Shown in pieces: positions 2,887-62,160 of a stretch of DNA of 64,000 bases (position 1 is the stretch's first letter; every line of letters begins with the position of its first letter). This DNA is from Massalongia carnosa (Eukaryota). A model generated the notes under the pieces. It ran no database searches, was not told where the DNA came from, and was given only the letters and a program-made list of their open reading frames with translations. The stretch lies in NCBI GenBank assembly GCA_965645245.1, contig OZ287073.1, positions 806,001 through 870,000 of the forward strand, in the 5' to 3' direction. Both the position numbers and the translations under genes were made by a program.

Positions 2887-4023
2887 TCAGCAAGTCAGGG
2901 AGAACTTGGCCTTTCGTTCGGCGGTATAAAAACCCCAATGGGTTTCATCTCCAGAGGAACCGGTATCTCCAATGCTCTTGGGTTTCCATGGTTCATCAAA
3001 GGCTTCAAAAGCAAACACATTGAATCCCCACGCAATTGCAGCACAAATACCTTCCTTATAAAATGTCTTGGCGTTGTCGGTCCCGGCAATTGCAGACCCA
3101 TAATTCGAACCACCTATCATCAACGTAAGTAAAAGACGTTGAAGAGAAGATCGAACGATTAACCTGTCGTGGGCCATCCAGTCTCTCCGTTCCAGATCTC
3201 GACAGCATCAACTGATCCGGAAACGTCTTGGATGTGGGTAAAGGCTTGCATCAGATCATCCAGATATGTCGCCGTAGCATTTCCAATTTCCTGGCCTTGC
3301 CAATATCCAAACGCGTTCACAAGCCTTCAAGATATTAGCACGTGGTCATGAAAAGAAAGCCATCAATAGCCGGCTTACAATAGCTTAACACCATCCTTGA
3401 TAACAGCATCGGCGGTACCGTCGGCAAATTTGTTCCAGCTATCTGCTGTTCCAATTTTTATATTAGGAAATGTGCTTTGCATATCCTGGATCTTCTTCGA
3501 TAGCTGCGACCCGGTCATGTCGCCTCGATACATCGCTTCTGAAGCAACGGTGATGGCATACACAGCATTGGCGTTCGCCGGAATAGCCTGTTGGAGGGCA
3601 ATCTTGTCTGCTGCGTACGCTTCGTCTGTGTGCCTAGCGATAATCCATCAATTATTTGCAATACTCCCTAGATGAACAGATGCATTCGAGCTATCAAGTG
3701 TCACCACATACCACGTGCCCAATATCACCTTGACACCCTTGCTCGCGGCAGCGGGAAGGATTTGTTCGGCAGTATTGCACTCATGTGAGGAATATGTCCG
3801 AACGATAGTCGTGCCTAGAGCATCGAAGTCTGCCTCGTAATCGACCGTGAACTTACAGCTGCCATCTAAGCAAGGCGTTTAGCAAATGAACATTTCCATC
3901 AAAAACTTTCAATAAACATTCACCTGGCTTCTTGGAACCAAGAGCAAACCCCAGAGTGCCCGCTGCAGAAACCGCTAACGGTGCCGCTGCAGCGGCGATG
4001 AAAACGATGCTTGCGAAACGCAT
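2887..4023 (-). CDS. Glycoside hydrolase family 17 beta-1,3-glucanase/glucanosyltransferase (Bgl2/Bgt1-like), secreted
   Basis: Signal peptide MRFASIVFIAAAAAPLAVSA; motifs ITVASEAMYRGD, IGTADSWNK, ETGWP, FEAFDEPWK, ETHWG; several canonical introns. Confidence 0.92.
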
Positions 4024-6696: not shown

Positions 6697-8093
6697 TTAC
6701 AGCCTTCGTAACCCGATCTTCGGTCTGGTAGATTTACCGCTCGTAGACGGGACAGAACTCAGCTTCGGAGCCCCAGCAAATGAGCTCGCCCCTCCTAGTG
6801 CTCCAAGGACGGGTGCGGATCGTATGGCTGGAAGCGTTGGCTTTTCCACTTCTGACCTCTCCATGATATTCTCCTTTCCTTCCCAAGAACACTGCCGCTT
6901 CGCAACAGGGGTATCCTCAGTCTCGTCCTCCTTGATGTCAAAGGACACGATAGCTAATCCAATTCCACCGACATCCTGAAGTCCTCGGCTGGTGAAAGTA
7001 ACGCATCGGCTTCTCTCAGCAAGCTTCAAAGTTTGACGCGAATACTCTGTAGTGGGGGCAAAGGGGCTGGAGAAGTGAGGCGTGTTGTTGACGATGTTGC
7101 GCTCCGAAGGACTGAGCCCCGAGGGATCATCATCATCAAAATCAGGGTCCGTAGGCGTCGGGAGGTCAGATAATGGGCGTTTGGGTAAAGAAGGCCTTCT
7201 GGGACTTGGTGCTATGACAAGCGATGGAGATTGGGAGGGGTCATTTTCTTTGGACTCAGACGCTTCGTCTTCCAAATCCTCGTCCATGCTCTTGTTCGTC
7301 ACGGTAAGATGATTTTCCGATCTTGCTATAGATCGTAGAGCGATATTCGGGCGCCTTTTCATCACTACGCTTGAAGAACTGGTTTTCGGTTTCATCGACG
7401 GTCTTTGGTCTGTTTCCTCTTTTATGGTTGTACCCGGTGCTTCACCTCGTCGCTTTGCTGCTAGGACCGCATCTTTCAAGTTTGGGGGGACGGTCGCATG
7501 AATAGAGGTCATGAGCCTAGCTTGACGAGCGAAAGTCTCGTAATCGTCCTGTAGAAGGTGGCCAGCCGCAGCATTGAGGGCAGAATCGGGATTCGGCTGG
7601 ATCAGGAGGCAAGATATTGTCTGATCAGTCCTTGTATCAGTATAGAAGGCAAATATCCATAACATTCCGATCAATTGCTCACAATCAGAACATCACGCAA
7701 CGTCAACTTCGGATCCCAATCTCTCTTCAAGGTATCCACGCAAACGCTTCCAGTCGTCTCTTCAACATTAGGATGCCAAATTCTAGTACGAAATGCTGCT
7801 TTGGGAGGGCTTTTTGGATAGTCTTCCGGAATCTTCAAAAAAAGCTTCCAGAGCCCTTGCGAATACGGCGTGCCAAGCGGACCAGTGAGAAGAATGGTGA
7901 GCTGCGTTAAATCATCGGGAATCGAAGAAGTATTGGCAGGAAAGAGATAATGCGGGGGGAGCTCGGCCTTGTGAAGCGAGGCATGATCTGATGCCAGCCT
8001 GCGTAATGTCGAGGAATTCTGTTGATCGCAATTGTCAGCCATGTGGTGGAAAGTCGTTGAAGGTCTAGGACCATATTCTGCTTTGCTTACCAT
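6697..8093 (-). CDS. Ubiquitin-conjugating enzyme E2 (UBE2S-like) with long disordered C-terminus
   Basis: UBC motifs [23 protein letters not shown]...[20 protein letters not shown]; exon 1 is the ATG alone (8091-8093); introns 8019-8090 and 7621-7682. Confidence 0.92.
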
Positions 8094-9106
8094 GATCGCA
8101 AGGGCGGTGGAGTTGGGAAGTAGAATTGATATGGAGAAGTCTGAATGCAGAAAGCTCAGCGGAGACAAAGAAGAGGAAGCTGAAGAGATGTAGAGGTGTC
8201 GACAATAGCATCTAACGCAGAGAGCTTGAGCATGTTTAAGTACCTAGAGGTGAATATCAAAACAATGTCAAATGCACGTCCGTTTAGTTTTCAAGCTAGA
8301 GCGGATATGGAAAATGTCAACAACACGTCTGGCTTTGGGGCAACGGGGGAAAGTTTGATTGCGCGACTCTTGATTGGTCGTCATCACTTCTATCACTTCT
8401 CGCGTAATTGCACGGATGTTGTCTTTTGAGCGTGACTTGACAAGAACATCGACTTCGTGTTTCTGTTTGTTATTGCATTATTTGTTTTCACCTCTTGCGC
8501 ACGGATGGATTTCTCACGTCTCACCGTGTCTTTGTCTGCTTCACCCTTCGTTCGTTCCCCCTTACATACACAACACAAAGACTGTGGATACTAGTTACAG
8601 GATCTTGGGCACGATAAAGAGGCCAGCAGATCATGCTAGAGAACGATGGATACCTACTGTCTTATCGAACATCGTAAGATAAGCATTTACAAGCAGCACT
8701 TTGATGTTCGAGATTTCAATCTTCATCCACAAGTTTTAATCATCATACAAGAGTTTTCATTTGCATTTGGATAAATGGGATCTTCATCTACCTTCCAGCT
8801 CTCTTGTTTCGACGGGTATTCATGTAGTTCTGCTGTTCAAACAAGCAAACGGGAAAACGGGGGAAACAGGTCAGCATGAATTTCGTTTTGAAATCCTATT
8901 AAATCAATAATTTTCCTATTCCTACCCATTTCCACTCTTGGATACACACTTCACACCTGGTTCGACTCTTGATAAATTCCTCTGTACGCAGTTGTTGTTT
9001 ATAGAACTTCGACCATTTGCTCCAAATCACCGTTTTTCTCAATCCATATGGCAAATAAGACATACGTCCCGCAAGTGACTAGTTTGCTTGAAAAGGCGTT
9101 AAAGGG

Positions 9107-9396
9107 GATATCATGAGGATACCACTGATGTCCCGAGCTGATTTTTTGTCAGCCGTGTCAGTTTACGTTCTGACACCTCATGTACGTTTCAGCACAACCT
9201 CGGCTTTGGTAAACCGAGAAAGGGGCATACCGAGGTTGCGCAATCCGACCAGTATGTAATATTCATCTTCTGGTGTCAGAACGTAAACTGACACGGCTGA
9301 CAAAAAATCAGCTCGGGACATCAGTGGTGTCAGAACGTAAACTGACACGGCTGACAAAAAATCAGCTCGGGACATCAGTGGTATCCTCATGATATC
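9107..9396. mobile_element. Mutator-like MITE (~70-bp TIRs, degenerate 10-bp TSD) with a 54-bp tandem duplication in one arm
   Basis: 9107-9177 is the reverse complement of 9326-9396; the 54-mer is duplicated at 9272-9325/9326-9379; flanks CGTTAAAGGG / TATTAAAGAG differ only by transitions; termini G...C. Confidence 0.7.
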
Positions 9397-10119
9397 TATT
9401 AAAGAGTATTCCTGAGCGTGATTGGGTTGCATTGATAAAAGCGGGTCGGCCAATCTGACGCCCAATCTTTAGTGTAGGCTCCCGCGATGATTCATAACTA
9501 GGCTTGGCGAACACGGCCTACGACGACTTTTCCCAGCATACGACTCGCCAACTAGCTACAACGCTTCTCAGCCGAGTGTCTTGGCATCAAGAACTCGCAT
9601 CTAGGTATTCATCTTTCGTGGGTTTTTTGAATGCGTCTTCAACCGTTCTGAGTTCAGCTGTTAGTAAACAAGAGGATTCGAAATCGTACCAAGAAGAGCA
9701 GATTGAACATCGAGGAGCCGAACGAGGAATCGGCGCGACTGGACCAGCTTCAAGTGAATTTTCAATTGAGATGCTGCCGCCTGGCAGGCCCTCGGATGAA
9801 AAGACAGGAGACGGGACTGTGACCCTGTATTTCCTCGGCTGCTAGCGAGGAATGCCGTCGTAACGGCTTCATACCGCCTCGCAATGGCTATTCCATACTA
9901 ACTTGAGGGGTCGACATAGGCAGACGTGTAGTTGCTTGGTCCAAGGAGGGCTGAGGCCATTGACAGCATCTATTAAATGCAAGTCAACATCTACCTTTTT
10001 CCCTGCTTCTCTCATCGCACTCATCGTTTCTCATCCATCTCCACACCCAGGATTTAAAAGCCCCAACACTTTTTCAACATACTTTTACCTTCTTTCAAAC
10101 TCATCCTCGGCCATTCACG

Positions 10120-10613
10120 ATGCACTTCTCCTACTTATCTCTGGCGCTCTACGCCGTTCTCGCCGCGGCGGCGCCTGCAGAATTGCAAAAACGTGGCCTC
10201 ATTATCTTCAACACCCCTGTATTCAACGGAGAGACCTTGGTGCCCGGTACATTCTACAAGTCGCCGTTCGTATCTCCCGGTTTCTGGGCCGAAGGCCCCA
10301 ACACTCCAATCTGCTCCATCGACTGTCTCAATCCTGCTGGAAGCTCCGACTCCATCTGCAAGAAACCCGGCTGTGCGAGGAATGTAAGTCGTCTTCGCAG
10401 AGAACGTTCACTTACCTAGGGGTGCATGGTCACAGTAGAGGCTAATCAGCACGAACGCAGGCTGCTACTCCCAAGGTCGTCGGCATCAACCCCAATGCCG
10501 TCTATGTGAACAAAGACAGAGTCACTGGCCGTAGGGGCAACGAGTACAAGCTGTGTCCCACTGGCGTCTGCTTGGTCGCCACAGGCGCCACGGTAAACAC
10601 AAGTGTCCCTTAA
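10120..10613 (+). CDS. Small secreted Cys-containing protein (138 aa), candidate effector/peptide precursor
   Basis: Signal peptide MHFSYLSLALYAVLAAA, propeptide ending LQKR (Kex2-type site), intron 10384-10460 (GTAAGT..GCTAAT..CAG), 6 Cys, stop TAA at 10611-10613. Confidence 0.8.
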
Positions 10614-10987
10614 TAGAGCGAAGAATACCCGGAAGGAAATGCGAACGGATACTACGCTTTGTGCTCCGTACATGTATGTTGCAGAAATTTGATATTTCTC
10701 CTTGAATTGTAAAGAGCCCGAAATGTCGCACAAAGGGAAAGGGATAGCACAGTCGGTGGAACGGCAAATAAGCATCTGTCTTTTTTTGCAATGTTGGAAT
10801 CAGGGATGGAAGGATGGATGGACGAACCGGGGATCTCTCCGCTTCGTTCTTGCTATGTTCTAGGTATCCTGTTCTTAGTACTAGTACAGTTAAAAACAAA
10901 ACAAAAGACACGAATCACTCTTCTTATTCCCCCTGCCCCTTTCTTGAAAAATCTAGAAATCGCGTTGTCGGCGAACATATTACCCAG

Positions 10988-12304
10988 CACGCCCCTGAAA
11001 AAAAAACTGGCAACGTGTAGGCGACTTTACCCCATTAAAATTCCCCCCTTTTCATCAACCATCCACACCAACATGCCTCGTAAGCAACGTGAAACTCACT
11101 ACGATACTCCCATTCGAGCTAAACTTCAAGGAATTCATGAATATCTTCTTGATGAAGGCATCGTACATGATCCACGAAATCTTTTCAAGAAGTATGGCGT
11201 TTCGGAACGAGCTGGCTACAGAATTATTCGCAAAGGAGCTTCGACACGTACTCGTCATCATACAGAGCTTATAGAAACGCGAGGAAGACGATCAAAAATC
11301 ACAGGCGAGCAAGTACGAGAGGCTGATCGGCTGCTTCGGGAAGATGAGCTACAACTCGAAGGAAAATGCTTGACATGGGAACAAGTTGCGATGGAAGTTG
11401 GAGCAGATGTTGCGGGTCGTACAATGCATAACGTGCTACGTGCTGCATTGAATTAAGAGAAATGTCTAGCCTGCGTCAAAAGGATGGCTAGCCGACCCTC
11501 CTATGCAAAAACGGGTGGAATACGCTCATATAATGCTGGCCAAATATCCTAAACCAGAAGATTGGTATCGAGTACGATTTAGTGACGAAGTTCATTTCTC
11601 CTACGGGCCCGAGGGCAAATTACGCATCACACGTCAGCCAGGCACACCATATAGATGGGATTGTATACAACATCGTGATGCGCCAGCGGAGAAAGATCGA
11701 AAGAGACTGCATTGTTGGGCGGCTGTAGGCTACAACTTCAAGTCGGATATTATATTCTACGAAGTGCCGGGCAACAGCAATGGCAAGATGACGCATCAAG
11801 TATACATTAACTCAATACTTGAGCCCGTTGTCAAGCCGTGGCTAGAGCGAGGGGATGATTTTGTGCTCGAAGAAGATGGTGATTCCGGGCATGGCACAGG
11901 CAGGACGAGAAACGCAGTCAAGAAATAGAAGGAGGATCATCGTTTAGAGCATTATTTCAACTGCTCTTCTTCACCTGATTTGGCTCCTATTGAAAACAGC
12001 TGGCAGCCCTCAAAGCAGCATATTAAAAAGTATCCTCATTGGGACGAAGCGAGCTTAAAAGCATTGATTTGTGAGGGCTGGGCGACAGTCAGTCAGGAGT
12101 TTATTAATGAGAGAGTACGATCAATGCCTCAACGGCTAAAGGACGTCATCTCAGCTGAGGGGGCCATGACTGGTCATTAATTTGATGTAAATAGCTTTCA
12201 ATTGACTGGTTATCGCAATGTAAAGGTGAAATGTTGATAAAAAGGGGTAAAATTTAATGGGGTAAGCTCGCTTACACGTTGCCAGTTGTTTTTTCAGGGG
12301 CGTG
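10988..12304 (+). mobile_element. Tc1/IS630-like DNA transposon (defective), ~72-bp TIRs starting CACGC, 5-bp flanking direct repeat CCCAG
   Basis: TIRs CACGCCCCTGAAAAAA(A/C)AACTGGCAACGTGTA...; transposase 11072-12180 with [23 protein letters not shown] and SPDLAPIE, interrupted by stops and a frameshift; CCCAG at 10983-10987 and 12305-12309. Confidence 0.9.
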
Positions 12305-12321
12305 CCCAGGTAAGTATCTGG

Positions 12322-12562
12322 CACGCGGTGCGAAAAAAAGTTGACACACCAAAACTCGTCAGTACGCATAAAACTACACAACTATCAAAGCTTCAACATA
12401 ATATAGAAATCAACAACAGATGAACCAGTAAAACAGACTTGATAGAGTAATAGAGTTATGTGTTCAAGTTCACCTTAACTTTTTGAAATGTATAACTTAA
12501 CGATGTAGCCTATCATAATTATTTTATATTTTTGGTGTGTCAACTATTTTTCGCACCGCGTG
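12322..12562. mobile_element. MITE (241 bp) with CACGC termini and 5-bp TSD TCTGG
   Basis: 33-bp TIR CACGCGGTGCGAAAAA(A/T)AGTTGACACACCAAAA at both ends; TCTGG at 12317-12321 and 12563-12567; AT-rich non-coding interior. Confidence 0.88.
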
Positions 12563-12712
12563 TCTGGATCTTCCAAACCTTAAACTGAGCCTTTAAGCGA
12601 GCGACCCTTACGTATCCCTACCCGTTCGGGACGGTCCGTTCCCCCAGCGAAAATCATTTCAAATTAGGACTAGCTATAAGCCACCTCCCTATACTAAATA
12701 ATTAAGTGCATA

Positions 12713-15369
12713 CCGAATTATTTGCCAGACAAAACCCTGGTCTTATGGGTCAATTGATCGCCCGGAGGTCATTTGGGACAGTTTTAAGGGCTATAGGGTC
12801 TTTCATATAGGGGGGTTTAATGGGCGAGGTAGCATTAGTCAGCCCCTATAAGCACGTACTAAACCTGCATGCGTTTTTGATCTACGTTTTTGACTCAGTT
12901 CATCAGCAATTCATAAACTTCTTGTTATTATGGCTCCTCCTCATACTCAGAATCTTCTGCAGGCTTCAAAACAGCCTCGTCCTGGGCTAGCTGTGAAGTC
13001 TTCAAGTCTTCGTAGCATAAATCAGGCCCGAATTCCAAAGAACGTGTATATTCAGCCTTCCATGCTCACCGTACCGACCTCTTTTTCTGGCGATCAGGAG
13101 GCTCAGATTCTGGAACAGTTTCGTCTTCATCGCGAGGGGGAAGGTCACAATTTAATCGACAATGCTCCCGATGACGAGGATGAGGTACGACGACGTATTT
13201 CCTACACCAGAGAGCAGAAATTAGCTGCTGTTAGTTATGCAGAGACTACCTGGAAGCAGCAAAAGGATGGAGGTTTAAAACTCATCAGTAAATATGCTGC
13301 AGCGGCGAATCTCGGGATTACTGCTACTATGTTAAGATAGTGGATTAAAACGAAGACGCATATTGAAACACTTTCTAGAGGTAGACGAAAAGAAAGTGGA
13401 GGAGGTTCCTGTCAAGAACCTGAGCTGGAAAATAGTCTTTTGAAATTGTCCCAAGAAGCTCGATTAGCTGGGCGTTGTAGGGTGGAGCGATGCTCGGTAA
13501 AAGTAGCGGGGAAGTCAGGTGACAGCCTTTCTTTTAGTTATAGATAGTTCTTAGACATAGAGCAAGCATGCTCGTAGCAACAGCTACAACACATAGCATC
13601 AACAGGCATGAGGCACGAGGCATGAGGCACGAGGCGCGAGGCATACAGTGACCAGTCTAGCTATTGTTTATATTCTATTGTCTTGTTCTTCTCTTGTTTG
13701 TTTGTTCTCTTGCACTCCTAGCAGTAGTGGACCACGCACACCACGCAGTTCATCCTTCCACAGCGTAAAATCAACAAACGTTGGTTTGTTCGTCAAGGAC
13801 GCAAATTGTACGGCGAAATGTATCCTCATAGAGTGCTTAAAGTCACCGATAAGATGACTGAATATAGCCGGTTCAAATTCTCTGATGGCTGGTTTGATGG
13901 GTTTAAACGTCGAACTGGTGTAGCTGTCAGAACTCCAACCAAAAAAGCTCAACAGGTAAATCATTCGTTGAAACAACACGAAACATTTTGACTAACACGA
14001 TTTGATGCAAAGGTACCAGAGAATTTTCGAGCTAATATTGAAAGCTGGTTGCAATTCAATCGTCGCAATTCTCAACTATTTTCACATCAGATTCCTTTGC
14101 ATGGAGGAGGCAGGTATAGAATTTGTGACATTGGCAACATGGATCAAACTCCGATTGCCTACGAGTTTCTTCAGGGTCAGTGCTACGATTTCAAGGGGGC
14201 CAAAACGGTATGGGTGAAAACTCATCGATCTAGCTGGGACTACAGGCAAGCCACATTGATAATATATAATTCTACTGATGGCATCAATCGCTGCAAACCC
14301 TTGCTTATTTTCAAAGGACAAGACGGGCCAAAAAACAGTCGAATTAGAAAAGAGATGATCATGTACGATCTGGGGGTAATTGTGCAGTGGAATATGAAGG
14401 CCTACTGCAATGCGGAAGTCATGATTCGATGGCTAAAACAGCAATACAAATACGCTACTGTGGACTGCATGACACTAATACACGGCGATTTTTATCTTTA
14501 GATGTCTTTTCAGGTCAAAAAACGCAGGAGGTAAATTGAATTCAAATATTATCATAGCTTCATTTAATTAACAAATTTGCAGGTCAAACAAGCCTTTCGT
14601 GATTTAAACATCACGGCTTCTTTTATTCCTTCCGGTTGCACCGGTTATGTGCAGGTTCTCGATGTTGCTATCAATAAACCTCTCAAGACTCGAATTTCCG
14701 AGCTGGCCAACATTCATTACGATGAAAATTTCGAGAGATGGAGCAAAGGATCCTACACAGGAGGTGATCAACGGATTATAGTAATAAAATTGGTGGGTCA
14801 AGCGTGGAGAGAACTACATACGAAACACGCTTCTCTCATTCGTCAAACATTTCGAAAGCTGGGATTATCGCTCGCTATTGACGGTTCAGAAGATGAAGAA
14901 TTGTCAATCAAAGACATACCAAACATTCAGGTGGCTGATTGGACGCTACCCTCTAATCAGTAGGACATTCAGGAGGTACGAGAGCCTGAATCAGACGTGA
15001 ATAGAATGATAAAGTCGGTAGGGGCTGAAAAGGTTGTCTCTGAAGGCATGGAATATGTAATAAAGGATGAATTGGAAGATGACGTGAACGATTAGGAGGC
15101 TGTTTTTGATGTTGAAGAAATAGAACATGTAAGTAGTGGTGGATTGGGTAGGGGGGGATTAAATTTCCGATTCAATTGATTTCTAAGAAAGGATACATAA
15201 GCTTTGGTGACATTTGCATATAAATTTATGTATCTTACCTTTTCATTCAAAAGGACCTGGTTTTATGGGCCAACCCCCCCCTATGATCAGAAATCAGCAA
15301 AGCAGAACAGGGTTTTATGGCCAAGAGGGTCTTAGACTGCAGGGGGGTTTTATCTGTCAAATAATTCGG
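12713..15369 (+). mobile_element. pogo-like (DDE_1/CENP-B-type, DD35D) DNA transposon, defective, with intron-containing transposase
   Basis: TIR CCGAATTATTTG(C/A)CAGA(C/T)AAAACCC with TA on both sides; transposase from ~12930 with FSDGWFDGFKRR, NMDQTP, LDVFSGQ and QVLDV; introns 13956-14012 and 14531-14582; stops and frameshifts. Confidence 0.88.
13476..13762. mobile_element. Solo LTR inserted into the pogo transposase
   Basis: TG...CA termini; GCGT direct repeat on both flanks; removing it restores the reading RLAGRKINKRWFVRQG; internal 7-mer repeats GGCA(T/C)GA. Confidence 0.75.
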
Positions 15370-15371
15370 TA

Positions 15372-15986
15372 TCAATTTGAATCGCGCAGACTTGTTCAAT
15401 CGCTCGATGTAGTCACGAACTGTCAGGGTCCTGGCCTGACCCGACATGCTCTAATAGTCACGGGATAGTGTGACTCGCTTAAGCAGTAGCGCGCGTCGCT
15501 TGACTGGCTAGCGCGCCACGGAAGATTATGTTTAGGATTCAGCGATGATTATTCTTTTCTTTCCTTCCTTGTAGTTAAATTCTAGTTCATAGCTACTGAA
15601 TAATATCAGGGCAAGCTGCCTGACATGAATAGCTTGTTCTTGCTCATTCGTCAGAGCTTTGTTAGTACTGGATCGACTGCTTTTGGAGTTGCCTTCATTT
15701 CATCGTTTTTGAACCGTACGAGCAACGTCAAAAGCTATGGCTGCAGCTCGACAATTAACATAAAATCATCGTGTAACGCGTCAATTGCACTGTTAATTCG
15801 ATCCTCGATAGCTGAATATGAGTTGATCATTATTGTTGAAATAGGTATATGACTATGGCTATACGGATATGTAATAATAAAGGTATGTATGACCGTGATG
15901 TTAAGGATGAAGAGTTGCTAGGTAGTGTTGAATCGCGGTTGCGATTATGGTTATAATGGCTTGTTGGGCTCACTGCCTCATAACGT
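15372..15986 (-). pseudogene. 5' fragment of a Fot1-like transposon (N-terminal HTH region)
   Basis: Degenerate translation IEDRINSAIDALHDD..CRAAAIAFDV..STNKALTNEQEQAI|RDYIERLNKSAR, split by a solo LTR; putative ACGT-starting terminus at 15986. Confidence 0.65.
15421..15625. mobile_element. Solo LTR (205 bp)
   Basis: TGTCAGG...CCTGACA inverted termini; flanks CGAAC / TGAAT (5-bp TSD diverged by transitions); interrupts the Fot1-like reading frame. Confidence 0.8.
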
Positions 15987-16196: not shown

Positions 16197-16355
16197 TAAT
16201 GCGGCATCTACGGAAACCGTAGATGATCTGTCCATCTAGGGCAGCCGTAGGTGCTATGTTCATTGTACTGATAGGTGTTCATTGTGCTGGTAGGAATTGG
16301 ACATTCAACAAATTAACACTCTTCAACACTCGTACAATCTTGCCTAGACGCAACA
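16197..16355. mobile_element. Probable LTR remnant truncating the adjacent transposase
   Basis: Ends ...CGCAACA exactly where the transposase homology stops; the other end reads TAATGCG (possibly a mutated TG start); no TSD found. Confidence 0.4.
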
Positions 16356-17410
16356 TGAACTCCTGATTCACCCGACTCCACCCCTCAAGAATCAACTCCT
16401 CCAGAGATGCATCGTCCCAGTGAGGATATTTTCGTGCTGTTTGATTGGCTGCCAGCAGTTTTCAATAACGGCCAAATCAGGTGAGGAAGCACAGTTGAAA
16501 TAGTGCTTCAAATAATGATCTTCCTTCCATTTTTGACCGCATTTCTCGTTATGCCCGTGCCATGTCCCGAATCTCCATCTTCTTCTAGCACGAAGTCGTC
16601 ACCTCGTTCCAGCCACGGCTTGACAACGGGGTCGAGAATGAAGTCGATGTATACTTGATGAGTCATCTTGCCGTTGCTATTGCCAGGAACGTCGTAGAAG
16701 ATTATATCTGATTTGAAATTATAACCAACAGCGGCCCAGCACTTTTTCTTTTTCTATCTTTCTTAGAAGGCGGATCGCGATGTTGTATGCAGTCCCAACG
16801 ATATCGCATGCCAGGCTGACGAATGATTTGTAATTGTCCTTCAGGCCCATACCCAAAATGTATTTCATCACTGAATCGTACACGATACCAGTCTTCCGAA
16901 TTGGGATATTTAGCTAGCATTATAGTAGAAAAATCTATTCTTCTTTCCATTGATGGATCGGCCAGCCATCCTTTGACACAGGCTAGACATTTGTGATAAT
17001 TCAAAGACGTTTGAAGAGTAATCATCATCGTACGACTTGTGACCTCGGCCCCGACTTCAATGGCCAACTGCTCCCAAGTGTAGCGTCTTCCCTCCAACTG
17101 CAGCTCCTCATCTTGTAGAATTTGATGTGCCTCAGCTATCTGATCTTCAGTGACCTTGCGTTTTCGGCCTCGCGTTTCGATGAAATCTGAATGATGATGT
17201 GTACGAGAAGAAGCTCCGCTCTGAAGCATTTCCTGGCCCGAGCGCTCCGAAACTCCAAATTCTTTGAAAATATTTCGTGGATCGAATGACGGGTGTATCA
17301 TAGTGAATTTTTCGTTGTCGAGGCATGACTAATGAATGATGATAGGTAAAAGGGATAAATTTTAATGGGTAAACTCGCTTACACGGCGAGTTTTTTCTTT
17401 GCCCCGCGTG
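16356..17410 (-). mobile_element. Second, diverged Tc1-like CACGC-terminus element, 3'-truncated
   Basis: Transposase clearly paralogous to 11072-12180 ([38 protein letters not shown]); ATG at 17326; terminus CACGCGGGGCAAAGAAAAAACTCGCCGTGTAAGCGAGTTTACCCATTAAAAT at 17410. Confidence 0.88.
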
Positions 17411-27279: not shown

Positions 27280-27864
27280 TTTTATTTTATTTTATTAATT
27301 CATTAAGCGTATGCATCCTAAGGATATGACGCTGTGACTGCTATTTATGTACATAAACAACAGTCAGGAAGTGGAAACCTGGCCCCCAGGGTCAAACCAC
27401 TCCCTTGTTCCATGTTGAACGCAACGAGACCGTCCTTCTACCACGCGGTGCATACACCCAGATCTTCAAGCGCTAGGAATCCTATAGACTCGATGAACTA
27501 GACAGTGTATTTCCACACGCTCGACGAACGTTCTCTCTCTTTAAACGTTTTGATTCAATGGAGGAAAGACTGGCCGTGATCGAGGGCAGATCGTGGTGTC
27601 GTATAAATGAAGGTGTGTAAGTGTGGCCATTCTAAATGAATGGGCTTTTTCGATGAGGTGAAAGGCTTCCACCTGAGGGGTGTGGCCATTCCGAATGAAT
27701 GGGCTTTGTATGTGTGCCTTCGAGGTGACGAATGATCAGTAGAGACGTTGATCGTTCAAATGGCCACCGAGGTGGACTTCCGCGTTAGCGATGATCAGCT
27801 ATTGGCCACCTCCGAGGAGGTGTTGATAGCCTGCACCACGTAGAGGTTTCTGACCCAGCAGGCC
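27280..27864 (-). mobile_element. Non-autonomous non-LTR retroelement (SINE-like / internally deleted LINE), 585 bp
   Basis: 12-bp TSD GTGTAAAAGAAT at 27268-27279 and 27865-27876; 3' tail TAATAAAATAAAATAAAA; 3' stem-loops; short degenerate LINE-ORF2-like C-terminus (FIESIGFL..VCTAW*). Confidence 0.85.
27793..27864 (-). ncRNA. HDV-like self-cleaving ribozyme fold (possibly degenerate)
   Basis: GGCCUGC/GCAGGCU P1 with G1-U wobble; ACC-UCUACGU-GGU P3/L3; CACCUC-CUCG-GAGGUG P4; GCCAA J4/2; GGUCAG/CUGAUC P2. G1 abuts the TSD. Confidence 0.75.
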
Positions 27865-28379
27865 GTGTAAAAGAATATAAGATGGCCCAATCCATGGCAG
27901 CAGGGGTAATTCATGCTTTGAGAAGTAACTAAAAAGTACGGAACCTCCAATCCATGGCTTTCATCTCCAGCCGAGAAGAATCTGCATGCAAGACCAGAAT
28001 AGATTAGAGTCTTGTTTGAAACATTTGGTTGTCCATGCCAACAGCTTCCAATTGGAACCGTCCGGATGCGGTCATATCACATTTCGTCCTTTTTTGTTGT
28101 TTGGATCTTTTGGGAGACAGAGTACTTTGCCTCCTTTGTCATAGAATTTGTGTACTCTGTATTGTGTGGCGCATACTCTGTACAGAAATACATAGCTAGC
28201 TAGGTCGGTCGTACAGGGGTACAGAGTAGCCTTTGGAACCTTTATGTTTGTAGTGGTCACATGTAGTTACTCCGTAAACGAAGAACTCCGCATCCCGCAG
28301 ATCTCTCGAGAACAACCAGATAAGTTTCGCGAACAAGATTAACAAATATAAAACAATTCCAACTGTCCCTTGTGCTTTG

Positions 28380-28409
28380 AAGAACCAAGAACCAAGAACC
28401 AAGAACCAA
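28380..28409. repeat. (AAGAACC)n short tandem repeat
   Basis: About 4 copies seen directly. Confidence 0.7.
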
Positions 28410-29232
28410 GAGCTAAGAGCTTGCCAAGGACAGAACAAGCTGTTGAAGTGGCATAGCAGGGTAGGTGGAGGTGGAGATCGGGGCAGTGCAAATACCTAAT
28501 CCTAAGCGATGGCCACTTCAACGCTCTCTTGGCTCTTGCCCACCTTCTTTCATATTTCATATTCTGTGCATCCTTTTCATCACTCTCTCTGTCTCATGCC
28601 AGGGGTTTGCGTTGTATCGACAGGGATTCTAGATTAGGTTGGATTGGAGTCGTCTGAAATCGTTGTGACAACTCGTCCAACGCCTTAATTCATTCTCTCG
28701 CTTTTCTCGCCATCATTTTGCGCCTGCCCCAAAGCATCATTTTCATGACCGACCTGCCCTGATCGCGACTGTCTGATGGCGACTCGGCGCAGAGGAGGCA
28801 AAGTTCCTGGAAGTTTGGTTGGACCATCTGGCTCAAACTGTCGCCAAGGAGATTGGTGGACGTTATTGGGACGCCGGAGACTGTTCTTCGCCCGTGGTGA
28901 GAGATCGATAAAAACCAAATAATTATCATCACGTCACGGAGTGCTTCTTTACCTTATGTGATCGAACCGGCTACTGATACTGAGGGTCCCAGAAGCTAAT
29001 ACATCTTCAACACTTTCATCAATGCTACACTCGCACCTTCCTTAACGTTAACATAAAGCAAGAAAACACCGGTTCAACGCTCTGATTGAACATCAGAGCT
29101 TTAATATCGACATCCGAATTATCTTTAGAGGCACAGAACACTTACATCCTATAACCGTTTCACTTGCATGCATATGAGCGGAAGCTCTAAGGATTCCGCC
29201 AATTACTTCATCGAGCAGATCGCTTGGTGATC

Positions 29233-59814: not shown

Positions 59815-59930
59815 TCATGTATAGAATATGCTTGTCGGGCTGGGTTGGACATATTGCATTTAGCGGGCGCTGGGATTTCGCATATGAGCTGATGATGATG
59901 TTCACAGCTTAATGGTATAGGTGGCATGTA

Positions 59931-61624
59931 CGGAGGAAAAAGTCCTTGGTAGCGTGCATTACTGCATTTTTAGCGTCGTGCAGAAAGGACGCTAAAAATT
60001 AAATATGGGGTTTTATAGATATTGTACATTTTGACCTGTGCAGCATCTTTCATTTATCAGATATCATCAAATAAAAATTTGTATGCTTCGAATCATGACA
60101 TCACGAACTCAGAACAATAGTCTGACTACTGGGCAAAAGTTACAAGCATTATCTTTGGTTGAACACGGCATAGCAGTCAAAGTCGTTCAAGCAGTCACCG
60201 GAGTCTCTACTCAGTCTATCAGTTATATCAAGCGCAAGGCACGAGATCGAGGATATGATCCCACTGTTTCGCGAATATTGAAGGTAAAATACGTAGAAGA
60301 TGCATGTCGTTCAGGACGTCCTCCTAAAGTGATGTCCGAGGTAGAACAGGCCATTTTAGACAACGTTTGTCATGATCGAAATGGTAGAGAAAAATCCTCA
60401 GCCGTTTTGGGATATGAGCACGGAGTCTCATCTACAACTATTCTCAATGTTCTTCGACGCAATAACTTTCGTCCCTGCAAATCTACCATGAAACCACGCC
60501 TTGATTCAACAATGAAAGAGGCTCGATTGCAATTCTGTTTGCGTTATCGTCATTGGACTCTCGATGACTGGAAGAATGTCATATGAAGCGATGAAACTAG
60601 TGTTGTGTTAGGCTCTCGAAGAGGACAAAGACTTCAGTGGCGAACTCCAAAAGAAAAATATGCTTAAACGTGCATTCGACGTAGATGGAAAGGATGTTCC
60701 GAATTCATGTTTTGGGGTTGTTTTTCGTATGAAAAGAAAGGTCCTTTTCATATATGGAAGCTGGAGACATCGGCAGAAAAACGGGCCGCTCAAGGAGAAA
60801 TCGACAAAATCAATGAGGCATTGGAGCCTCTAGCGAAAGAAAATTGGGAATTGGAAATAAGCATGAAACGAATGGGACTGCGTACCAAAGGTGGTCGAAA
60901 ACCGGTCTGGAAATGGGATGAAAAGCATGGAAAAGTGGCTCGAAAAGGCAAAGGGGCAATCGACTGGTATCGTTATCAAAAACTATTCTTCTTCCAAACT
61001 TCTTCCGTTTGCAAAAGAATGTATAAAAGATCGTCCCGATACTATTGTGCAGGAGGACAAGGCCCCTAGTCATGCTTCCAAACATCAAGACCTCGTCTTT
61101 ATGGATGCAGAAGTCTTGCGTTTATTGTGGCCGGGTAATTCTCCTGATTTGAACATGATCGAGCAATGTTGGCCTTGGATGAAAAGGCAAACCACACGAA
61201 AAGGAGCACCTCGAAATCGCATTACGGCTATCAAAGCATGGACTCGGCGCTGGACAAAAACTCTGGAAAAAAAACAAATTCAGCAATGGATAGAACAAAT
61301 TCCACGACATATAGAAGAAGTCATCGCTTTGAATGGAGGAAACGAGTATCGAGAGGGTCGAGACAATGGTGTGGTTCGGCCATATAATTCCGAAGATCGT
61401 CGCATTCGCTATCGCAAAGACATTATATCTAATAGCAGTGATGTATACTGATCATGTCATAAGTCTGCATATAGACCTGATTTTCAATGCATTATATCGT
61501 TTGAAAATGAGGTTGATGTGAAAAATAAAGTTGATAAATCAAATATGGAAAAGGGGCATTGATGCAGCGCTAAATCCTTAGTGCCATTCTTAGCGCATCC
61601 AAGGACTTTTTGTGTCATCCTCCG
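59931..61624 (+). mobile_element. Tc1-like DD34E DNA transposon (defective), TA TSD
   Basis: Termini TA|CGGAGG...AAAAGTCCTTGG (left copy with a short deletion); transposase RSGRP, SDETSV, QEDKAPSH-x-SPDLNMIE (34 residues between D and E); stops and a frameshift. Confidence 0.9.
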
Positions 61625-62160
61625 TAGACATGTCGATAACTGTACAGAGGAACATTGGGCGCATTCCACATGCATGTTAGCAGGAGAGAAGGGGTAAGCA
61701 TACCAGCTATTTTAGGGAGAAATTATTCAACCTCTCAGGTGGAATATAAACCTCCACCAGACTGTTCTCCAATCAAGTCAATAAATCGGGGAATAGGCAT
61801 CGCTCTAAACGACAGAAACGAGTCTACAGACACTTATGACAGAAGTGGTTAGTTTTAGATTTAATCAGCTAACCAGATCGAGGGTTTCCCATATTGATGT
61901 TGAACAGACACATGCAGGATCGCTGCATTGAAGATCATCGCTGCTTGACGAACCCTTCTAGCGGTAACTCAAAGGGTTCAACCAAATGCTGCAACGCAGA
62001 TCGCTTCCCTGTGGCTTACATAGTAAGAGTCTAAATTAAGCGAGAGAACTAGTGACCGCCTGCCAATCTCAACTTCAACTTCACTCTTAATAACCACGTA
62101 CTATCTATCCTCCCCTCACTGCCTTTCCCAAAAATCCCAAACTCGCCAAAACTTCCTAAT

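Follow-up and report, generated by a model that had tools for sequence, protein, structure and literature searches.

Two Neighbouring Insertions with Five-Base-Pair Duplications

The stretch of DNA analyzed here (64,000 nucleotides (nt) of Massalongia carnosa, GenBank assembly GCA_965645245.1, contig OZ287073.1, positions 806,001 to 870,000 of the forward strand; hereafter "the window", in whose own numbering its features are given) harbors, at 10983-12567, two small transposable elements separated by 17 base pairs (bp): a "main element" with a Tc1-type DDE transposase gene, and a non-coding miniature inverted-repeat transposable element (MITE). Each of them is bordered by a perfect 5-bp duplication without TA, and the features of the locus are as follows:

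10983-10987: left copy of the target-site duplication CCCAG of the main element (sequence reading, repeat search)
10988-11066, plus strand: left terminal inverted repeat, starting CACGCCCCTGAAAAAAAAACTGGCAAC (80 nt at 86%; 72 nt at 89%)
11073-12180, plus strand: Tc1-type DDE transposase gene of 368 codons, inactivated (Pfam DDE_3, tblastn with the relative P0002)
12226-12304, minus strand: right terminal inverted repeat, ending ...CAGGGGCGTG (repeat search, blastn)
12305-12309: right copy of the target-site duplication CCCAG of the main element (sequence reading, repeat search)
12317-12321: TCTGG to the left of the miniature element, first copy of its 5-bp duplication (sequence reading, repeat search)
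12322-12562: miniature element (MITE), 241 bp, non-coding, ends opening with CACGCGGTGCGAAAAAAAGTTGACACACCAAAA (inverted-repeat search)
12563-12567: TCTGG to the right of the miniature element, second copy of its 5-bp duplication (sequence reading, repeat search)

The main element is 1317 bp long (10988-12304), and both of its ends open with CACGCCCCTGAAAAAA. Its inverted arms (10987/8-11066 and 12226-12304/5) are 86% complementary over 80 nt according to the repeat finder and 89% over 72 nt according to blastn, the 80-nt version of the arm including one extra complementary base (G/C) beyond the terminus, which is a chance match. The ends of the miniature element (12322-12354 and 12530-12562), beginning CACGCGGTGCGAAAAA, are 97% complementary over 33 nt. 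An earlier note on this DNA, made from the sequence alone, had described the former as flanked by CCCAG/CCCAG and the latter as a separate MITE 17 bp away with TCTGG/TCTGG flanks, and both descriptions were confirmed base for base by direct reading and repeat searches.

The gene of the main element was compared by tblastn with P0002, the best match of a protein search (an intact 368-aa protein, 96% identical, from a cluster of 18 sequences), and three lesions became apparent: a TAA at 11454-11456 (Tyr in P0002), an additional A in the run at 11478-11481, and a TAG at 11926-11928 (Trp in P0002). The designation "near full-length" used in the earlier note is thus apt insofar as all 368 codons are covered, yet the copy is dead through the TAA, the frameshift and the TAG. 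Its catalytic residues are the D in FSDE, the D in LEEDGDSGH and the E in PIEN, with 38 residues from the D of LEED to the E of PIEN (counted; 117 nt measured), and the motifs FSDE, WAAVGY and SPDLAPIE are all present, just as the note had read them (FSDE, W..VGY, SPDL.PIE and the 38-residue spacing).

The public sequencing runs containing this stretch include a lichen metagenome. In four public runs, the covering contig has C at 11456, one base fewer at 11478 and G at 11927, and, as these are the unmutated letters at the three lesions, a lesion-free version of the gene exists in those samples. No contig of the four runs spans either element or bridges a junction with at least 31 letters on both sides (region 10000-13500), so that the contigs display neither the filled nor the empty allele. 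The summed word depth over the main element, which is not a copy number, amounts to 11-26x that of the left flank in three of the four runs and fits a repeat.

Considering also an older copy further along the window (see below), it is highly probable that the window holds a dead autonomous element, an older truncated one and a miniature one, all of which belong to a Tc1-type clade that makes 5-bp duplications.

Five-Base-Pair Duplications across the Family

Whether the two window elements are representative of their family was addressed using 79 metagenome loci of relatives (35-63% protein identity; L-numbers below), for which the element ends were sought by aligning the sequence preceding the gene with the reverse-complemented sequence that follows it. 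Too little flank was available at 16 loci, no convincing end pair was found at 30, and 33 yielded end pairs scoring at least 44; from these, duplicates of the same insertions in sister assemblies (L004=L003, L015=L014, L020=L019), a palindrome (L063) and four loci whose flank on one side fell short of 12 nt (L017, L023, L043, L067) were dropped. The automatic test therefore comprised 25 loci and the two window elements, 27 altogether, with the terminus permitted to fall 0-6 bases inward of the aligned ends.

A perfect flanking 5-mer was found for 16/27 elements, as opposed to 6/702 (0.85%) mismatched left/right flank pairs, the chance expectation of a perfect 5-mer at both ends being approximately 1/1024 per element; flanking 6-, 7- and 8-mers were found for 2, 2 and 0 of the 27. 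The earlier note had named ends that extend outward to a TA in most copies among the outcomes that would speak against it, and a TA on both sides was found for just 1/27 (L021, where it lies within the 5-mer GTACG), with symmetric offsets of 0-6 allowed. Upon hand curation, two automatic hits at offset 5 (L029, L045) were removed, and L021 (missed through an indel) and L069 (a 571-bp element with 24/24 matching ends flanked by CCTTG/CCTTG, which came from a separate scan for short elements and is the same as L070) were added, so that in 16/28 independent elements the CA terminus directly abuts a perfect 5-bp duplication:

window element: CCCAG
window MITE: TCTGG
L001: CCTGC
L003: ACCCC
L006: CGTGG
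L011: CCTAC
L021: GTACG
L025: CCACC
L028: CCTAC
L034: ACAAG
L041: GCCGT
L048: CTCGC
L050: CCCGG
L051: CCTCG
L065: GGTGG
L069: CCTTG

The tabulation of flanks, which the note had called for on all genomic copies with CACGC ends and which was carried out here on metagenome relatives, supports its proposal of a Tc1-lineage enzyme with an altered target stagger (16/28 perfect 5-mers, with the mismatched control at 0.85%). A further 20 loci with weak ends, rescored more loosely, turned out to be degenerate or cut copies, and an alternative TA-type end was seen in none of them.

Target-Site Preference

For the analysis of the target, 16 empty sites were rebuilt from the element coordinates. The position two bases before the 5-mer (-2) is A/T in 16/16 of them (p 1.5e-5), its mirror position two bases after the 5-mer (+6 in the tally) is A/T in 15/16 (p 2.6e-4), and the base directly after the 5-mer is C/G in 15/16; inside the 5-mer itself, C occupies base 1 in 10/16 and base 2 in 12/16 (p 3.8e-5), and G occupies base 4 in 7/16 and base 5 in 9/16. 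The G+C content is 72% in the 5-mers versus 47% in the flanks. Provisionally, the target consensus may be written as W-S-C-C-N-G-G-S-W (W, A or T; S, C or G), with rough two-fold symmetry around the central base of the duplication; cleavage of the two strands at points five bases apart by a transposase dimer would give rise to such a symmetric pattern. It is also because of this partly palindromic preference that the aligner picked up extra complementary bases outside the CA.

The flanks of L011, L021, L025 and L028 are rich in CCTAAGG, CCTACC and GGTAG words, which may reflect either a favored local repeat or a common contig ancestry.

The Transposase Family and Other Tc1-Type Copies in the Window

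The catalytic half of the window gene, with its TAG read through as X, matches Pfam DDE_3 with an E-value of 1.2e-8, and the protein search returned 578 relatives at E <=0.001, the named ones being from Bimuria, Clathrospora, Colletotrichum, Orbilia, Ophiobolus and Botrytis. When 15 full-length relatives were aligned, D171, D268 and E307 were invariant; DDE_3 was found in 15/15 of them and HTH_Tnp_Tc3_2 in 7/15 (best E 3.7e-6), the latter domain not being detected in the window copy by the Pfam scan. The family alignment profile matched the Sleeping Beauty catalytic domain (5cr4) from end to end with an E-value of 2.2e-18, and the model of P0002 (mean predicted local distance difference test score (pLDDT) 74) shows helical bundles at residues 14-126 and had Mos1 (4u7b, E 2.5e-11) and Sleeping Beauty (5cr4, E 3.8e-11) as its top Foldseek matches, with retroviral integrases at around 1e-3. 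When 1.84 billion cluster representatives (50% identity) were searched with the profile, 458 matched at E <=1e-30, 4520 at <=1e-10 and 15472 at <=0.001, while none of the 557 pattern-matched stretches from a scan of one genome per bacterial or archaeal species encoded a relative. Domain, profile, fold and relative counts together place the gene product among the Tc1-type transposases, in a fungal family of considerable size.

The elements themselves are 1254-1754 bp long, with end pairs of 17-107 nt and one transposase gene of about 340-400 codons. They share with the IS630/Tc1/mariner group the DDE_3 domain and RNase H-like fold, the N-terminal helix-turn-helix (HTH; in relatives) and the short one-gene layout, and depart from it in lacking the insertion at TA with a 2-bp TA duplication. 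In L048 (~3060-3300) and L065 (~3230-3470), some 50 nt with a stop in them interrupt the frame just past the D-S-G-H-G-T-G loop, beyond which reading continues in frame, the interruption probably being a short intron within the transposase gene.

Two further Tc1-type copies lie in the window:

16355-17410, minus strand: older copy of the 5-bp family, 73% DNA identity to the main element, several frameshifts (sequence comparison)
59929-61626, plus strand: unrelated Tc1-like element serving as a TA control, flanking TAs included (Pfam, flank reading)

The former has lost its 3' part; its 5' end is CACGCGGGGCAAAGAAAAAA, with ACTAG before it, and a duplication is not scorable. The latter, cited in the earlier note as a DD34E Tc1 element at 59.9-61.6 kb that does show TA, indeed proved to be one: the element proper (59931-61624, ends CGGAGGA...) has a TA on either side (59929-30 and 61625-26), a D-E spacing of 34, both DDE_3 (E 6.3e-10) and HTH_Tnp_Tc3_2 (E 2.6e-9), and only 21% identity to P0002. 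As the TA-flanked control and the 5-bp elements share one window, the same genome has both types of Tc1 lineage.

Terminal Architecture, Miniature Partners and the Likeness to Impala

The aligned ends open with C-A (rarely C-T), followed by about ten mostly G/C bases, an A-tract, a block such as GCCGGAC or TGGCAC, and often ACACCAAAA. Most members have the termini CA[C/A]G[C/G], with CTCGC and CTCCC occurring too, so that the "CACGC termini" of the earlier note are true of the window subfamily but not of the clade as a whole. Terminal sequences vary in step with the transposase subfamily.

The 33-nt end of the miniature element is identical to that of the adjacent main element at 19/33 positions and to that of L025 at 28/33. 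Judged by these ends, it is a member of the 5-bp clade that is not derived from its neighbor, and it is probably driven by a different, unseen transposase, which, given the 28/33 match, is expected to be one of an L025-like subfamily encoded elsewhere in the genome; the notion of a family with its own MITE partners thus stands as far as the shared clade and 5-bp duplication are concerned, but the partnership is not with the element next door.

How miniature elements originate in the 5-bp clade is illustrated by L069, a 571-bp internal-deletion derivative keeping just the C-terminal third of the gene. It is present at 2413-2983 of both L069 and L070, on two contigs of one assembly, with perfect 24-nt ends and the CCTTG duplication in both, the pair representing either a segmental duplication or two haplotypes.

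Among known elements, the impala of Fusarium oxysporum (reportedly 1280 bp long) and its miniature partners, the mimps, look the most similar: the hosts are filamentous ascomycetes in both cases, both kinds of elements are small (most members here being 1.25-1.4 kb), and the miniature partners are about 200-240 bp in both. Impala has a single transposase gene encoding 340 aa (PMC5579170), and the impala/mimp ends read CAGTGGGNNGCAAWAA (PMC3599309, PMC5579170), to which those of the present clade, e.g., CAAGTGGGTGACAAAAA (L021) and CACGCGGGTAGCAAAAAAA (L003), are alike; the L021 end differs from the impala motif chiefly by one extra base, members here being one base longer before the G-run. The exact motif CAGTGGGNNGCAAWAA is, however, absent from the window (one mismatch allowed) and from the 79 loci, and the decisive difference lies in the target: impala and mimp require TA, which is the next dinucleotide at 150/158 mimp ends (PMC3599309), whereas the clade here duplicates 5 bp without TA. 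In host, size, ends and miniature partners, impala is the closest known element. As for the hosts, the impala group in the tree supplement of PMC7325037 comprises Penicillium, Talaromyces, Aspergillus, Rhynchosporium, Cordyceps and Fusarium; Colletotrichum, Botrytis, Bimuria and Clathrospora, four of the genera with relatives here, are not in that group of the supplement, the first two being in its pogo part only.

The Loop after the Second Catalytic Aspartate and a Putative Mechanism

What distinguishes the 5-bp clade from Sleeping Beauty in the catalytic domain is the segment following the second catalytic Asp. Sleeping Beauty reads D244-N-D-P247-K248-H there, and the alignment of the family profile with 5cr4 shows S-G for P-K plus four extra residues after D-G-D-S-G-H. 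Every readable element with a scored duplication has D-x-D-S-G-H-G, a 3-6-residue insertion and a D-E spacing of 37-40 or more (37, 38, 39 or 40 in the 13 elements in which both motifs were found), which departs from the strict Tc1 (DD34E) arrangement, the extra residues sitting directly after D-x-D-S-G-H. The TA control has D-K-A-P-S-H, i.e., P three residues past the Asp. In the P0002 model, the loop residues 272-277 have a pLDDT of <50.

In Sleeping Beauty, the segment matters for the choice of target. P247, three residues past the second Asp, overlays the integrase residues S119 of human immunodeficiency virus 1 (HIV-1), S124 of Rous sarcoma virus (RSV) and A188 of prototype foamy virus (PFV), K248 overlays N120 of the HIV-1 integrase, the residues at +3/+4 contact and bend target DNA in both Sleeping Beauty and retroviral integrases, and changes at H187, P247 or K248 alter the target choice of Sleeping Beauty (PMC8934666).

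Presumably, in a cut-and-paste reaction, a transposase dimer assembled on the two ends has their 3'-OH groups (…TG-3') attack the target strands 5 bp apart instead of 2, gap repair after this staggered attack then giving a 5-bp duplication. The altered stagger and the lost TA requirement might both, by a weaker line of reasoning that draws on sequence comparison, stem from the remodeled segment after the second catalytic Asp. Miniature elements with like ends and a 5-bp duplication are probably moved in trans by transposases of the matching subfamily.

Comparison with Other Known Systems

Tc4 and Tc5 of Caenorhabditis elegans and TBE1 of ciliates are Tc1/mariner members with 3-bp TNA or ANT duplications, and such 3-bp sites are what the known exceptions to TA in the superfamily consist of. 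They set a precedent for a departure from the 2-bp TA, although their targets are 3 bp long and A/T-centered, and those described here are 5 bp long, G+C-rich and without TA. CAC termini together with a 5-bp duplication are the signature of Transib, and both are seen here; the transposase, however, is DDE_3/Tc1-type by Pfam, profile and fold and not RAG1-like, and the elements are far smaller, so the likeness to Transib/RAG1 is superficial and convergent, a shared outcome and not shared descent.

With Sleeping Beauty and other Tc1 elements the clade shares the catalytic fold, the DDE triad, the N-terminal Tc3-type HTH and inverted ends opening with CA; the differences are a spacing of 34, P247-K248 and TA there, versus 37-40 or more, S-G plus an insertion after the following histidine, and 5 bp here. 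Retroviral integrases, of which that of HIV-1 likewise makes a 5-bp duplication, resemble it in the 5-bp stagger, in the weakly palindromic target preference and in the serine three residues past the second Asp, where HIV-1 has S119 and RSV S124 (PMC8934666). They are nonetheless only distant RNase H-like kin (Foldseek E ~1e-3), and the elements here are DNA cut-and-paste elements with inverted ends and lack a zinc-binding or C-terminal integrase domain. Finally, Intruder has a D-E spacing of 38, as does the window copy; according to its authors it is confined to animals, their TBLASTN search having covered fungi as well (PMC7731502), in contrast to the fungal host and 5-bp duplication here, and the equal spacing is no evidence of kinship.

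Weighing the Interpretation

The observations support the existence of a Tc1-type clade, widespread in filamentous ascomycetes, that has the Tc1 fold and element plan and makes 5-bp duplications in place of TA. A more far-reaching interpretation, which we put forward tentatively and would not yet bet on, is that this is an undescribed impala-like clade that has dropped the TA rule and adopted a retrovirus-like 5-bp stagger at G+C-rich, CCNGG-type sites, the cause being the remodeled segment after the second catalytic Asp. The link between the loop and the stagger is, in turn, suggested by comparing sequences.

Several points weigh against reading these elements as a 5-bp Tc1-type clade with the putative mechanism set out above. 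A clean 5-bp repeat is missing from 12/28 elements: L029 (662-2030) has a 7-bp repeat, CCCAGGT, at a normal terminus; the flanks of L007 (2398-3689), CACTAC/TACTAC, form a 6-mer with one C/T mismatch; those of L012 match at 4/5 positions; in L018, L027 and L045 the 5-mer is shifted by 2-3 nt or overlaps the terminus; L008, L014, L030 and L031 have no flanking repeat; and L002 and L019 have lost their termini. Several of these 12 copies are visibly decayed, with stop codons, and L029 (7 bp) and L007 (6 bp) suggest that a stagger other than 5 may sometimes occur. A small number of related assemblies contributed many of the metagenome loci, which count as independent insertions but not as independent hosts. 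The evidence for the duplications is confined to old insertions, since neither an empty orthologous site nor an excision footprint nor a new insertion was seen. The target consensus derives from 16 sites only, and its symmetry is imperfect (+7 is A in 12/16, and its mirror, -3, is T in 3/16). The loop hypothesis is a correlation only, and more distant relatives of the fungal clade, among them P0153, P0213, P0218, P0225 and P0265, are without the insertion and have kept the serine. Moreover, the DD38E Intruder belongs to the Tc1/mariner group, described in general as TA-duplicating (PMC7731502), and if Intruder is of the TA type, a spacing of 38 alone does not suffice for a 5-bp stagger.

The most serious alternative, which we consider rather unlikely but by no means far-fetched, is that the family does make 5-bp duplications and has already been catalogued as doing so (e.g., as one of the "Mariner-N" entries of Repbase, or in Dfam): with 578 relatives and 458 clusters it is large and widespread, and curators of fungal repeats have very likely met it. 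On the other hand, the full texts of about 8.1 million PMC papers and 0.36 million preprints, a scope outside which Repbase, Dfam and most subscription journals lie, yielded no IS630/Tc1/mariner lineage with a 5-bp duplication. TA insertion is stated there to be the hallmark of the group (PMC7325037, PMC7731502), TA is given for the pogo-type elements of Sclerotinia (PMC4188875), and duplications are not mentioned in the accessible portion of PMC9977792.

That the Tc1-like gene is a mere passenger, and that the ends and the 5-bp duplication are made by an unrelated enzyme acting in trans, e.g., a Transib-like one, is very improbable. The idea draws on the Transib signature mentioned above (CAC ends and a 5-bp duplication) and on the miniature element, which needs a trans-acting enzyme anyway; but at more than 20 loci on different contigs the Tc1-like gene is the sole gene between ends 1.25-1.75 kb apart, the ends co-vary with the transposase subfamily and follow the same plan of CA, G-rich stretch and A-tract as the impala/mimp CAGTGGGNNGCAAWAA, and no RAG1-like reading frame was noticed beside any copy, though no scan aimed at one was made. 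That the true ends lie further out and include a TA, or that the 5-mers arose by chance, is, as far as sequence can tell, next to inconceivable, since the complementary bases gained outside the CA (one, G/C, by the window arms; 1-5 by several metagenome copies) are explained by the partly palindromic target preference, and TA/TA was seen in 1/27 despite offsets of 0-6, with 5-mers in 16/27 versus 0.85% of the mismatched controls.

Should the undescribed impala-like clade with a remodeled target-contact segment be real, it would mean that the target stagger has changed in nature while the transposase fold stayed the same, and it would supply TA-independent Sleeping-Beauty-like tools, the TA requirement limiting the landing sites of Sleeping Beauty-type vectors. 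What determines the strand-transfer distance in DDE transpososomes is poorly understood, and a clade in which the Tc1 fold, end architecture and element size have persisted alongside 5-bp duplications in G+C-rich sites offers a natural experiment on this point; as a TA-using look-alike (impala) exists and the difference at the target-contact residues is small and defined, the question is directly testable by loop swaps. On a more practical note, repeat annotators demanding TA flanks will mis-delimit the 5-bp family and its miniature partners in fungal genomes.

Other Features of the Window

When both insertions are taken out of 10983-12567, the rebuilt sequence reads …TTACCCAG, GTAAGTATCTGG, ATC…, which is like a consensus 5' splice site (CAG/GTAAGT). 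No gene model of the window crosses the rebuilt site, and the splice-site reading of TTACCCAG followed by GTAAGT was set aside, the sequence fitting the target preference of the family (S-W-A after the 5-mer) equally well.

Two further candidates for membership in the family were rejected. A CACG-ended pair at 27516-28896 (15/20 matching, no duplication) was taken as chance, and matches to CACGNNNNNNNAAAAA at 9.1-9.4 kb fall in another miniature element, whose termini differ. The latter (9120-9400) has long inverted ends (…ATCATGAGGATACCACTGATGTCCCGAGCTGATTTTTTGTCAGCCGTGTCAG…), one arm of which is tandemly doubled (9292, 9346), and it matches the loose CACG…AAAAA pattern internally only.

The stretch 12574-15372 contains a pogo/Fot1-like element with a weak DDE_1 match (E 7e-4) and 28-nt inverted ends (12710-12737 and 15345-15372). 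The summed contig depth of the region peaks directly ahead of this element, in 12574-12690, at about 80x that of the unique flank in run X1, making this a separate high-copy repeat. The minus strand carries, at 6697-8243, a gene for a ubiquitin-conjugating enzyme (PF00179, E 8.8e-27), and, judging by composition and by these neighbors (the ubiquitin-conjugating enzyme gene and the pogo-like DDE_1 element), the window is ordinary eukaryotic chromosomal DNA.

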